From Alphaproteobacteria bacterium (GTDB lineage Bacteria; Pseudomonadota; Alphaproteobacteria; UBA828): DNA of 64,000 nucleotides. The translations under genes were made by a program, and so were the position numbers. The notes below the pieces were generated by a model. That model saw only the letters and a list, made by a program, of their open reading frames with translations, searched no databases and was not told the DNA's origin. Shown here one piece after another: positions 11,629 to 15,111 of the stretch; within the stretch, counting starts at the first letter, position 1, and each line of letters starts with the position of its first letter. The stretch is from positions 1,912 to 65,911 of the forward strand of contig SHWC01000006.1 in assembly GCA_009691045.1 (NCBI GenBank). Direction: 5' to 3'.

Positions 11629-12105
11629 ATGGACGGGCTTGAGCTGAGCCGCGCGCTGCATGTGGTGGCGGTCGTCATCTGGATCGGCGGCGTCGCCTTT
11701 GTGACGCTCACGCTCCTGCCCGTGCTTGGCCGGAGCCGCGCCAGCGATGACTGGTTTGTTCGCTTCACGGCAATCGAGCGGCGCTTTGCCTGGATTGCCC
11801 GTGCTGCCCTGCTCGTCGCCGGCGGCAGCGGCTTTTACCTGATTGTCGCGATGGACGCGTGGGACCGCTTTACCATGATCGCCTATTGGTGGATGCATGC
11901 CATGGTCGTGGTGTGGGTTCTCTTCGCGCTCATGCTGTTCGTCATCGAGCCGCTCGGGCTTGACCGCGCCCTGCGGGAACGGGCGAGGCGTGACCCCGCG
12001 CGCGCTCATTTATTGGTAAGTCGCGCTCATTGGGTGCTGCTGATCGCGTCGCTCATCGCCGCCTTCGGCGCCGTGGCTGGGAGCCACGGCGCCTTTCTCG
12101 GCTAG
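11629..12105 (+). CDS. Hypothetical 4-TM membrane protein (CopD/HemJ-like appearance)
   Basis: ORF 11569..12105 trimmed to ATG 11629 behind GGAGGA. It has four hydrophobic segments, and the first helix, LHVVAVVIWIGGVAF, has a conserved-looking His. It converges on nirK with a 7-nt gap. The family assignment is uncertain. Confidence 0.5.
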   Translation: MDGLELSRALHVVAVVIWIGGVAFVTLTLLPVLGRSRASDDWFVRFTAIERRFAWIARAALLVAGGSGFYLIVAMDAWDRFTMIAYWWMHAMVVVWVLFALMLFVIEPLGLDRALRERARRDPARAHLLVSRAHWVLLIASLIAAFGAVAGSHGAFLG

Positions 12106-12112
12106 CAGGGTT

Positions 12113-13399
12113 TTAGTGTCCGCCTGAATCGCCCGGCTTTTGCTCGCCCATATCAAAGATCTCACGGTTCTCAGGCCCTTCGGCGATGATGAAGCCGACC
12201 AAACCGCGCTCAAGCCGGCCTAGCGCATGATCGACGAGAATATAACGGCCCGGCACCTCGATCTTGAAATCGACGATGCCAGCACCGCCCGGCGGCACGA
12301 CAATCGTTTGCACGCCTTTGAGTGGCGGGCTCATGATGCTCGCGAGATTGTAGGCGTCATCGAAGATTTCGCCGATGACGTGGAAGGCCGAGGTGAAGTT
12401 CGGTCCGCCGACACCGAAATAGATGCGCACGGTTTCGCCAACCTTGGCCTTCATGGCGTGTGCTTTGGTCAGGGCGCCGACCGCACCGTTGAACACGAAA
12501 TACTTAGGCTGCTCGGCCAGCATCTTGTCGACGCTGAATTCCTGGCTGCCCTGCTCGCCGAACGGCGCCTCGGTGTACATCTCGCCCTGCATGACATAGA
12601 ACTCGCGCGACACCTTCGGCAGGCCACCTTCGGGCTCTACTAAAATCAGCCCATACATGCCGTTTGCGATGTGATGCGCGACCATCGGCGTTGCGCAGTG
12701 ATAGACATAGAGACCCGGTATCAGGGCTTTCCACTTGATCGATTTTTCTTCGCCGGGCGGCACCTGCAATGCCACCGCGCCGCCACTGGGACCGGTCGTG
12801 GCATGAAAATCGACCGAATGGATCATCGCGCTGTCGACGTCGTTTTTCATATGGATGTAGATCGTATCGCCGACACGCACGCGCAGGAACGGCCCGGGCA
12901 CAGTCCGGTTGAAGGTCCAATAACGATAGGTCGTGCCATCGGCCAAGCGGCCGTCGAGCTCGACCGATTCGAGATCGATACGCACGGTTTCGGGCCCGCT
13001 TCGATTGATTGGCGGGGGCAATTTGGTCGGGTCCATGACGATATCGACCTGCTCGGCGGCGCTGGGCGCTGCCTCGGCGACCACGAGCTTGCCTTGCATG
13101 CCGGATTCGCGCTGACCAGGCAGAGCCGAGAAGTAAGCGAAGCTTCCCGCCTTGGTGGCACGAAATGAGATCGTCGTTCCGGCACCCGCCTTGGTGACGC
13201 TTTCAGAGGTCACGTTTTGATCGGGAAAGGCGAGATTGTGCTCGCCACCTTCGCCATTGATCAGCGTCACTTGAATAACATCGCCGACCTTGGCGTTGAG
13301 CGCCGGATTAGCCTGGCCGTCGATCGCACCGCCAACGCCGATGAAGGCGACGCGGCCTTCGCTCGTTGCGGTCCGCAGCGCAAAGGCGACATCAGGCAC
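12113..13399 (-). CDS. nirK: Copper-containing nitrite reductase NirK with N-terminal cupredoxin-like domain (no signal peptide visible)
   Basis: The core has HSVDFHATTG (T1/T2 Cu His), YVYHCATPMVAHHIANGMYG (Cys-His-Met T1 ligands plus a T2 His) and FHVIGEIFD. The N-terminal ~110 aa fold like a cupredoxin. Translation starts at GTG 13399, directly after an in-frame TAA. Confidence 0.85.
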   Translation of the reverse strand: MPDVAFALRTATSEGRVAFIGVGGAIDGQANPALNAKVGDVIQVTLINGEGGEHNLAFPDQNVTSESVTKAGAGTTISFRATKAGSFAYFSALPGQRESGMQGKLVVAEAAPSAAEQVDIVMDPTKLPPPINRSGPETVRIDLESVELDGRLADGTTYRYWTFNRTVPGPFLRVRVGDTIYIHMKNDVDSAMIHSVDFHATTGPSGGAVALQVPPGEEKSIKWKALIPGLYVYHCATPMVAHHIANGMYGLILVEPEGGLPKVSREFYVMQGEMYTEAPFGEQGSQEFSVDKMLAEQPKYFVFNGAVGALTKAHAMKAKVGETVRIYFGVGGPNFTSAFHVIGEIFDDAYNLASIMSPPLKGVQTIVVPPGGAGIVDFKIEVPGRYILVDHALGRLERGLVGFIIAEGPENREIFDMGEQKPGDSGGH

Positions 13400-13871
13400 T
13401 TAGGTTAACCGCCGCGTGTTCTTCGGCCGGGAGCGCGGCGGCGGTCTTCGCGGCTTCGGGTGCCTTAACCGCTGCGCCGGCGGCTGCCTTGAGATAGGCA
13501 ATAACATTGGCGCGATCGCCGGCATCGCGCAGCCCGTTGAAGGTCATTTTGTTGCCGGGAATATTGCCTTTGGGATCGGCTAAATAGGCCCCGAGCGTTT
13601 TGTCATCCCAAACAATGCCGGACTCTTTCGTCGCCTTGGAAAACTTGAAATCCGGCTGGCTGCCGGCGGCACGGCCAACGACGCCCGCGAGGTTGGGGCC
13701 GACCTTTTTCTTTCCCGGCTCGACCGAATGGCAGGCTTGGCATTTTTGAAACACCTTCTTACCGGCTTCGGCATCGCCGGCGGCGTAACTGTTCCCGGCG
13801 GCGGCGGTGGCCGCGACGGTCGCCAAGGCAAACATAAAATGCCGTGTCGATTTTCTTTGGCTGCTGAGCAT
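13392..13871 (-). CDS. Class I c-type cytochrome (c2/c550-like) with signal peptide and Ala/Pro-rich C-terminal tail
   Basis: CQACH haem-binding motif, GNKMTF Met-ligand region and an N-terminal hydrophobic signal (FALATVAATAAAGNSYA). It overlaps the nirK start by 8 nt. Confidence 0.85.
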   Translation of the reverse strand: MLSSQRKSTRHFMFALATVAATAAAGNSYAAGDAEAGKKVFQKCQACHSVEPGKKKVGPNLAGVVGRAAGSQPDFKFSKATKESGIVWDDKTLGAYLADPKGNIPGNKMTFNGLRDAGDRANVIAYLKAAAGAAVKAPEAAKTAAALPAEEHAAVNLSA

Positions 13872-13948
13872 GACGGTCCTCTTCGGAAGCGCTCGATGCG
13901 CGGTTGCCGAACGCAGGCTTATCAGACTCGATTGGGGTTTCGCCGGCC

Positions 13949-13962
13949 TTGATTTGGGTCAA
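13949..13962 (-). promoter_or_regulatory. FNR/NnrR/Dnr-type box TTGATTTGGGTCAA (consensus TTGAT-N4-ATCAA, one mismatch)
   Basis: Read directly. The box is centred ~85 nt upstream of the cytochrome c ATG (13871), in the 100-nt gap after the CoA-transferase gene. Confidence 0.45.
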
Positions 13963-13971
13963 GGCAGGTAT

Positions 13972-15111
13972 TCAGTCGCGCGTGCCACCATCCCAGGCCG
14001 TGATGATCTCGTCAGCCTTGCGCCGCGTGATCACGGTGCGGGCGGGTTCGACCGCGCCGTCGATGCGGGCGGGGAATAATACCTCGATGAACGGGTCGCG
14101 GCCCTCGTGACGCTTAACGAAACCACGCGCCGCCGTTTGCTCATGCTTCACCATCTCGGCCAATTCATGGACCGGTTCGAAACAGCAATCGACCGTGCCG
14201 AGCGCGGCGTCCCACTCGCCGAGCGTTTTTGTTTCGAACAAGGCCGTGACCTCGGCGATTAGGGCGGTTTGCGGCATGGTCTCCCATTGACGCGGCGTCC
14301 AATCGGGCCGGCCGACCGCCTCGCAAAAATTTCGCCAGAATTTTTCTTCGAGCGCGCCGAGCGAAACGAAGCGGCCCTCCCTGGTGCGATAGATTTGATA
14401 GAACGCGGCGCCCCCGGTGAGAAACGCCTTGCCGCGCTCGACCTCATGACCCAGCCGGGTCAGAGCGGTCAGCGCCCATTGGCTCCAGGGCAGTGGGCTT
14501 TCGGCGATCGAACAATCGATCTGGCAGCCTTTGCCCGTGCCGCCCGGCCGATCGCGCCCAATGAGCGCGCCCAAAATGGCGAGCGCGGCGTGCATGCCGC
14601 TCGAATAATCGCCGACCATGGGATAGGCGGCGTAGGGCCGCTCGGCACTGCCGCTCAAGGCCAGCGCGCCGAACAACGCCATGTAATTGATGTCATGACC
14701 GCCCTTCAGGCGATAGGGGCCGGTGGCACCCCACCCCGATAGCGAGCAGCGGACAAGGCGCGGGTTGAGCGCGGCCAAGCGCTCATCGGCGAAGCCAAGT
14801 CGCTCCAACACGCCCGGCCGATAGGATTCGAGAAAAACATCGGCACGCGCGATCAGTGAATCGAGATCGGCCTTGCCGCGTTCCGATTTCAAATCGAGCT
14901 CGACATAGGATTTGCCGCGATTGATGACCTTGTACCAGGCGGAGACGCCATCTCGATCCAGCGGGCCGATTTTACGCATCGGCTCGCCGCCCGGTGGTTC
15001 GATGCGAATCACATCGGCGCCGAGATCGGCCAATATCAACGAGGCATAGGGCCCTGGTGCATATTGCGACAGATCGAGGACGCGGGTTCCTTCAAGAAAA
15101 CGGAAGGGCAT
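13972..15111 (-). CDS. Family III CoA-transferase (CaiB/BaiF family)
   Basis: 379-aa ORF. The N-terminus, FLEGTRVLDLSQYAPGPYASLILADLGADVIRIEPP, is typical of the family. Confidence 0.85.
   Translation of the reverse strand: MPFRFLEGTRVLDLSQYAPGPYASLILADLGADVIRIEPPGGEPMRKIGPLDRDGVSAWYKVINRGKSYVELDLKSERGKADLDSLIARADVFLESYRPGVLERLGFADERLAALNPRLVRCSLSGWGATGPYRLKGGHDINYMALFGALALSGSAERPYAAYPMVGDYSSGMHAALAILGALIGRDRPGGTGKGCQIDCSIAESPLPWSQWALTALTRLGHEVERGKAFLTGGAAFYQIYRTREGRFVSLGALEEKFWRNFCEAVGRPDWTPRQWETMPQTALIAEVTALFETKTLGEWDAALGTVDCCFEPVHELAEMVKHEQTAARGFVKRHEGRDPFIEVLFPARIDGAVEPARTVITRRKADEIITAWDGGTRD

Follow-up and report, generated by a model that had tools for sequence, protein, structure and literature searches.

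We describe here a copper nitrite reductase locus on the minus strand of a 64-kb stretch of DNA (64,000 nucleotides of contig SHWC01000006.1, hereafter the window) from the metagenome-assembled genome (MAG) GCA_009691045.1 of an uncultured alphaproteobacterium. A cytochrome c and a cupredoxin-NirK protein are read there from two overlapping open reading frames (ORF 1 and ORF 2, respectively; Table 1). With a probability that we put at roughly 0.85, judging from sequence comparison, the locus is a young pseudogene, the recently inactivated gene of a four-domain haem c-cupredoxin-copper nitrite reductase of the BrNiR type. The fused state of its homologues, a pair of lesions at the junction of the two frames, the inheritance of these lesions and signs of relaxed constraint carry this reading.

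Fused homologues of the split locus

The joined translations of ORF 1 and ORF 2 were searched against a collection of 5.8 billion proteins, and 120 matches were listed. The closest of the matches listed, P0001 (585 aa), is 96% identical to the fused query and covers 100% of it, and P0002 (586 aa) is 77% identical. Homologues with all four domains in a single protein of 560-730 aa number in the thousands. The other listed matches, well over a hundred, are nearly all 560-736 aa long and about 60% identical, and combine PF00034 with cupredoxin and Cu-oxidase domains; P0076, a Bradyrhizobium-named protein, is one of these full-length homologues. The sole match of 428 aa among those listed, P0003, is ORF 2 of the window with one residue changed. 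P0001, P0122 and P0002 are single-polypeptide orthologues, and in all these fused homologues the cytochrome tail runs directly into the NirK N-terminus. A preliminary description of the locus, made from its letters alone, had proposed this comparison; it yields one continuous alignment across both ORFs, with the full coverage seen in P0001. The two findings named there as contrary to a fused origin, a two-ORF layout kept by close relatives with an intact stop and a NirK start that has its own signal peptide, and a cytochrome tail never contiguous with NirK in fused enzymes, were not encountered. Together, these data show that the fused state is the rule and that the window locus was one signal-cytochrome c-linker-cupredoxin-NirK gene, now split.

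The enzyme class is a known one. Four-domain haem-cupredoxin-copper nitrite reductases (CuNiRs) are represented by BrNiR of Bradyrhizobium sp. ORS 375 (Sasaki et al., FEBS J 2021, as cited via PMC7775769 and PMC12117333), and PDB entry 6the is the core-domain structure of this enzyme. The mention, in the preliminary description, of four-domain CuNiRs in some Rhizobiales is confirmed by these two sources and the PDB entry. The window locus resembles BrNiR in its domain order: signal, class I cytochrome c, Ala/Pro linker, cupredoxin, linker and two-domain core. It differs from BrNiR in that a frameshift and a nonsense codon interrupt the chain within the first linker. It differs further in that the clade of the window, intact relatives included, is without the Cys of the type 1 copper (T1Cu) site in the tethered cupredoxin (Ser in its place) and mostly without the His (Gln in its place).

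The two reading frames

ORF 1 matches the Pfam family Cytochrom_C PF00034 (2.5e-11, residues 34-129) and the NCBIfam Bradyrhizobium CycA model NF043008 (4e-32, residues 13-128, 111 bits, with an equivalog cut-off of 240). It contains CQACH, a Met-ligand region that reads GNKMTF and the helix VIAYLKA, and the haem ligand columns (CQACH, GNKM) are conserved in 117/117 homologues; all conservation counts refer to this set of 117 four-domain homologues. Residues 129-159, about 30 aa rich in Ala, Pro, Glu and Lys, lie outside the cytochrome fold. Read from the sequence, the N-terminus is Sec-like, with a net charge of +3 over residues 1-11, the hydrophobic core FMFALATVAATAAA, and S-Y-A ahead of AGD. 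The description of ORF 1 as a cytochrome with a signal-like start, haem motifs, a C-terminal helix and a linker-like tail is thus borne out by the sequence and by the extents of the Pfam and NCBIfam matches. The product shares with BrNiR a predicted export signal at its N-terminus and, behind it, a class I cytochrome c domain that has CXXCH and an axial Met. Stand-alone cytochromes c550/c2 of the CycA type are alike in signal, CXXCH and Met ligand, and in the match of ORF 1 to the CycA model, but ORF 1 scores far under the equivalog cut-off and carries the 30-aa tail, which is the interdomain tether of the fused enzyme.

ORF 2 scores above the cut-off of TIGR02376 (5.4e-100, 334.9 bits against 296.3). 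Its cupredoxin fold is recognised by PF13473 (1.3e-7) and by alignment to the cupredoxin of HdNiR, the three-domain enzyme of Hyphomicrobium denitrificans (2dv6, 6tfd/6tfo; PMC7201279). The structures 6tfd (6.6e-165) and 2dv6 (1.1e-162) match end to end, and 6the matches at 3.7e-143. The CuNiR core motifs HSVDFH, YHCATPMVAHHIANGM, SAFHVIGE and VDHAL are intact, and the ligands of T1Cu and of type 2 copper (T2Cu) are kept together with the catalytic Asp and His; the frame thus encodes the two-domain CuNiR core that characterises the BrNiR class. ORF 2 alone shares the three-domain architecture of HdNiR. In HdNiR, however, the cupredoxin fold is preceded by a signal peptide and by an N-terminal peptide of ~25 residues, both of which are missing from ORF 2; HdNiR also retains the cupredoxin copper ligands, whereas the cupredoxin of ORF 2 lacks the Cys and the second His. 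Because residue 4 of ORF 2 aligns with residue 27-30 of the mature Hyphomicrobium enzyme (2dv6, 6tfd), ORF 2 starts at the first cupredoxin strand, without a signal or N-terminal peptide. Its N-terminus, again read from the sequence, has a net charge of 0 over residues 1-11, no twin arginine, and as its sole hydrophobic run the cupredoxin strand. The claim that the NirK ORF lacks both a Sec core and a twin-arginine motif therefore holds by charge, hydrophobicity and alignment start.

The two ORFs overlap by 8 nt, ORF 2 lying in the +1 frame relative to the cytochrome. A TAA at 13402-13400, in the NirK frame, directly abuts the GTG start of ORF 2 and makes an upstream start impossible. The cytochrome frame closes at its TGA and the NirK frame at the TAA, and the four domains are consequently not on one polypeptide as they are in the BrNiR class. 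On all of these points, coordinates, frames, overlap and GTG after TAA, the preliminary description agrees with the window sequence. A tblastn search of the 64-kb window revealed no second nirK or related cytochrome.

The public record likewise splits the locus, into MSO69072.1 (ORF 1) and MSO69071.1 (ORF 2), labelled 'cytochrome c family protein' and 'nitrite reductase, copper-containing', respectively. In MSO69072.1 the cytochrome is 147 aa long and starts at MFALATV, 12 codons downstream of the ATG at 13871, and the signal thereby loses its positively charged n-region. The ATG at 13871 is accompanied by an invariant Shine-Dalgarno (SD) sequence and is the start used by intact relatives.

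Two inherited lesions at the junction

Across the junction the P0001 protein reads AAVTYVPDVAFALR, and the DNA of intact relatives reads GCG GCG GTT ACC TAC GTG CCT GAT GTC (AAVTYVPDV, with a VTYVPD core). The window has GTTAACCTAAGTGCCTGAT, in longer context GCGGCGGTTAACCTAAGTGCCTGATGTC; the junction letters of an allele without the two lesions are GTTACCTACGTG. In a DNA alignment over 1,758 nt, the window differs from the five contigs L001-L005, which encode P0001, by one extra base and 101 substitutions. The extra base, an inserted A, and a C>A substitution 6 nt away are the lesions that break the gene (Table 1). Both changes are derived in the lineage of the window, because L008, an intact relative at 87%, and L007 are without the extra base and have TAC. 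The motif in which they fall, Y-[IVL]-P-D, has Tyr in 108/117 homologues and Asp in 115/117, and the GTG 'start' of ORF 2 is the internal Val codon of Y-V-P-D in intact genes.

The preliminary description had considered a 1-nt indel, arising from real decay or assembly error, in a fused gene. The fused gene and the real decay stand, but the lesions are two and not one, and an assembly error is not supported. Deleting the inserted A leaves the nonsense codon in place, and the nonsense change by itself already yields a stop followed by GTG. When the single +1 correction proposed there was tried, the ancestral frame and residues were not recovered by one base; a 1-nt correction within 13395-13399 would reopen the frame, not restore the ancestral TY residues. 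In one scan of JGI metagenome contigs, covering all four allele combinations, no single-lesion allele was found, and neither was the intact allele.

Both lesions are shared by two contigs from other data, L006 (a Logan assembly of SRR8561391) and L028 (a Logan contig of SRR8561390), which both contain GTTAACCTAAGTGCCTGA. Compared with the window, L006 shows 8 mismatches over 4,367 bp (0.2% divergence), and L028 is no exact substring of the window; since both differ from the window elsewhere, the three are not copies of one assembly. The ENA contig ERZ1305449 has the same 159-aa and 428-aa gene calls with the 8-nt overlap. The exact NirK protein of the window was not recorded in the contig index searched, and the near-identical P0003/L006 supplied the context. 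Given that the indel and the substitution recur together in different assemblers and runs, and that no homopolymer longer than two bases occurs in their context, the lesion pair is inherited. As in pseudogenes, lesions that disable the gene are seen against syntenic orthologues intact at this site (L001-L005, L007, L008) and recur in independent data (L006, L028).

At 13403-13410 the inserted A completes the quasi-palindrome GGTTACC, making GGTTAACC, a perfect palindrome of 8 nt. Conversion of a quasi-palindrome into a perfect palindrome is typical of template-switch (quasi-palindrome correction) mutations. This pattern leaves the C>A change 6 nt downstream unexplained.

Age of the break and signs of relaxed constraint

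The ratio of nonsynonymous to synonymous substitution rates (dN/dS, Nei-Gojobori) between the window and L001 is 0.074 at a dS of 0.22; by half, it is 0.13 for the cytochrome and 0.055 for NirK. Polarised with L008 and L007, the split lineage has ~40 synonymous and ~9 nonsynonymous changes and the intact lineage ~34 and 8. Among split alleles dS is ~0.005. Since dN/dS is low and the branch counts resemble those of the intact lineage, the break is recent, and for most of its history the split lineage was equally constrained.

The position of the replacements differs between the two lineages. Six of the eight split-lineage replacements fall in columns that are 80-100% conserved among the homologues, as opposed to 0/7 in the intact lineage (Fisher p = 0.0056; small counts). 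These six are M81T and D94G in the cytochrome, A256S in the cupredoxin, and D338Y, G362S and E456K in the core, the columns of G362S and E456K being conserved in 117/117. Of the differences between the nirK sequences of the window and L006, 4 are nonsynonymous and 2 synonymous (p = 0.014, given the ancestral dN/dS; few substitutions), and 6/8 of the mismatches between the two in 4.4 kb lie within nirK (p = 0.05). These three signals agree in direction and, on small counts, suggest relaxed selection on the cytochrome and NirK halves alike.

Fate of the two products and alternative readings

Ccm attaches c-type haem in the periplasm, on an unfolded Sec substrate, and for this reason one Sec signal must export the whole intact chain. 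In the intact ancestor, the Sec signal at the cytochrome end would take the entire polypeptide to the periplasm, where haem (by Ccm) and copper would be inserted. Two point mutations 6 nt apart would then have cut the frame in the linker between cytochrome and cupredoxin, in the lineage of the window MAG. The product of ORF 1 could still pass through export and maturation, yielding a small cytochrome c whose linker hangs free. ORF 2, if translated at all, would depend on termination-reinitiation at the internal Val GTG, and its product, without an export signal, would stay in the cytoplasm. From the lack of an export signal on ORF 2 we infer loss of function: respiratory nitrite reductase activity is not expected.

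Several observations weigh against inactivation. Beyond the two lesions, the 1.3-kb NirK ORF is free of stops and frameshifts, and all of its core copper and catalytic residues are intact, as are the haem motif and the signal of ORF 1. A box of the FNR/NnrR type and the SD sequence upstream of the gene are unchanged, and the 8-nt overlap, the GTG and a GGCGG able to pair with the anti-SD would permit coupled translation of ORF 2. The branch-wide ratio of nonsynonymous to synonymous changes is not raised in the split lineage; the nonsynonymous differences between the window and L006 lie 4/4 in linkers, which are weakly constrained anyway, and post-split substitutions are very few. An intact box and SD are as expected if the break is recent. 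These points would be typical of a very young pseudogene, yet loss of function is not proven by sequence.

The strength of the two SD sequences was dropped as evidence in both directions. According to the preliminary description no SD precedes ORF 2. A purine-rich SD is indeed lacking, but this does not discriminate: the GGCGG 9 nt upstream of the GTG forms an anti-SD duplex of -5.7 kcal/mol in silico, about equal to the -5.8 kcal/mol of the SD at the cytochrome start.

A rival reading is a functional two-subunit enzyme, in which the cytochrome c is exported alone and a translationally coupled cupredoxin-NirK is cytoplasmic, or enters the periplasm along an unrecognised route. In its favour, the two ORFs are otherwise intact and keep all core ligands, an 8-nt stop/start overlap suits reinitiation, the layout has been inherited in at least two slightly diverged populations, and BrNiR engineered without its cytochrome domain keeps some activity (1.67 vs 9.38 nmol/s; table in PMC12117333). 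We nevertheless consider this reading improbable. ORF 2 has neither a Sec nor a Tat signal. A cytochrome that crosses the membrane unfolded (Sec/Ccm) cannot carry a partner with it, as is well established. The two-ORF layout occurs only in a shallow split lineage, while the relatives at 96%, 87% and 77% and nearly all other listed homologues are fused. Moreover, the replacements of the split lineage strike invariant residues, and the split itself destroys a Tyr conserved in 108/117 homologues. The suggestion of a genuinely split functional enzyme, made in the preliminary description, is hence not supported, given the confinement of the layout, the lack of an export route and the replaced invariant residues. 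A related version, also quite improbable, is a functional reversion to an exported cytochrome c and a signal-less cupredoxin-NirK; the latter would act on nitrite inside the cytoplasm or take an export route undescribed for CuNiRs.

An intact fused gene misread through an error of sequencing, assembly or polishing comes to mind because the window is taken from a MAG and a single-base indel is a classic artefact. We regard such an error as very improbable and have rejected it: an error would have to account for two changes, an indel and a substitution, where homopolymers reach at most two bases, and the same pair is reproduced by Logan from SRR8561390 and SRR8561391, with the same gene calls in the ENA assembly. 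Hardly credible, and likewise rejected, is prfB-like programmed +1 frameshifting in AGT GCC before the UGA, giving a fused product ...AAVNLSA-DVAFALR...: the geometry, a +1 shift at UGA within a two-codon slot between the TAA and TGA of the two frames, is there, but CTA AGT GCC TGA offers no slippery codon, the tRNA-Ala on GCC cannot re-pair on CCU, no SD-like stimulator stands 3 nt upstream, the product would miss the conserved Y-V-P residues, and the shift site is confined to the split lineage, all relatives beyond it being simply in frame. Recent inactivation of a fused gene thus remains the reading that we favour.

Promoter region, relatives and gene neighbourhood

The box upstream of the gene, TTGACCCAAATCAA, is the sole match to TTGAY-N4-ATCAA in 64 kb (0.14 expected), and its half-sites are kept in L001, L008 and L007, down to 86% protein identity. 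It is likely an oxygen- or nitric oxide (NO)-responsive promoter element of the once-fused gene, a regulatory function suggested by its sequence and position. A scan of 11900-14200 for the sigma-70 consensus gave no match, which is uninformative for an FNR-type promoter.

Table 1. Features of the split nirK locus; positions are those of the window.
Feature	Position	Strand	Description
Disrupted four-domain nirK, whole	12113..13871	minus	Signal, cytochrome c, linker, cupredoxin, CuNiR core; now read as two overlapping ORFs
ORF 1	13392..13871	minus	Cytochrome c, 159 aa; ATG 13871 to TGA 13394-13392
Parts of ORF 1			Sec-type signal (~residues 1-30), class I cytochrome c domain, Ala/Pro-rich interdomain linker, frameshifted tail NLSA
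ORF 2	12113..13399	minus	Cupredoxin-NirK, 428 aa; GTG 13399-13397 to stop at 12113
Parts of ORF 2			Cupredoxin domain (~residues 1-107), linker, CuNiR core (~residues 117-417); no signal peptide
Lesion 1	13405..13406	minus	Inserted A, GTT ACC to GTTAACC, frame +1; base missing from L001-L005, L007, L008
Lesion 2	13400..13402	minus	C>A at 13400, TAC (Tyr) to TAA; in-frame stop before GTG
SD of original gene start, GAAGAGGA	13877..13884	minus	Invariant in five aligned relatives; anti-SD duplex -5.8 kcal/mol
Putative FNR/NnrR-type box, TTGACCCAAATCAA	13949..13962	minus	~84 nt upstream of the cytochrome ATG

Contigs from five samples (L001-L005) and the GTDB representative MAG L010 encode P0001; over 12 kb, L001 and the window share 94.8% identity. 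L001-L005, L008 and L010 share the gene order of the window: ClpS-ClpA, CoA-transferase, nirK, a convergent 158-aa gene, TauD, glyoxalase and ABC transporter. The fused gene is intact in L008, the relative at 87%. The same synteny is found in L007 (GCA_009691035.1, SHWD01000025.1, 5671-7437; a MAG named 'Alphaproteobacteria bacterium'), at 86% protein identity. The nirK of L007 has decayed independently: an AAA>TAG stop replaces the Lys just before the haem Met ligand (GN*MTF), the core T1Cu Cys is changed to Tyr and one T2Cu His to Arg. Evidently, as far as these sequences tell, the four-domain nirK is dispensable in this group under some conditions. The 478-aa remainder in L007 is publicly annotated as nitrite reductase.

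The gene convergent on nirK (window 11629-12105, plus strand) encodes a 158-aa multi-pass membrane protein with sub-threshold similarity to CopD/UPF0093 (E ~1e-3). It adjoins the intact nirK in L001-L004 and L008-L009, but gene calls for it are missing from L007 and the P0002 contig. The protein may be a candidate copper-handling partner.

A cupredoxin tether with an incomplete set of copper ligands

The tethered cupredoxin of the BrNiR class has a complete T1Cu set (His, Cys, His, Met). This set is incomplete in the window, and P0001/L001 have the same two changes. In the column of the T1Cu Cys, Ser is found in the window, P0001, P0122, P0002 and P0004, as opposed to Cys in 116/117 other four-domain homologues; in the column of the second His, the window clade except P0002 has Gln, as opposed to His in 117/117 homologues. 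In the window, Ser stands for Cys at 12656-12658 and Gln for His at 12641-12643, within the motif FAYFSALPGQRESGM at about residues 85-102 of ORF 2, and L001, L008 and L007 share the changes. Between intact genes the cupredoxin domain is under purifying selection (omega 0.10, L001 vs L008). This pattern suggests that the cupredoxin tether of the clade is copper-free in otherwise functional enzymes.

Biological meaning of the split

The enzymology of copper nitrite reductases is unchanged by the split, which concerns a known enzyme class and what appears to be an ordinary recent pseudogene. For specialists of these enzymes, the tether without the copper-binding Cys is a more interesting lead than the split itself. 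A survey based on gene counts would score the window MAG as a nirK denitrifier, though its enzyme is very probably without a route to the periplasm. Together with the independent decay in L007, the locus would represent repeated loss of four-domain nirK in these uncultured Alphaproteobacteria, and it may serve as a small caution against inferring the potential to form NO or nitrous oxide (N2O) from the presence of nirK.

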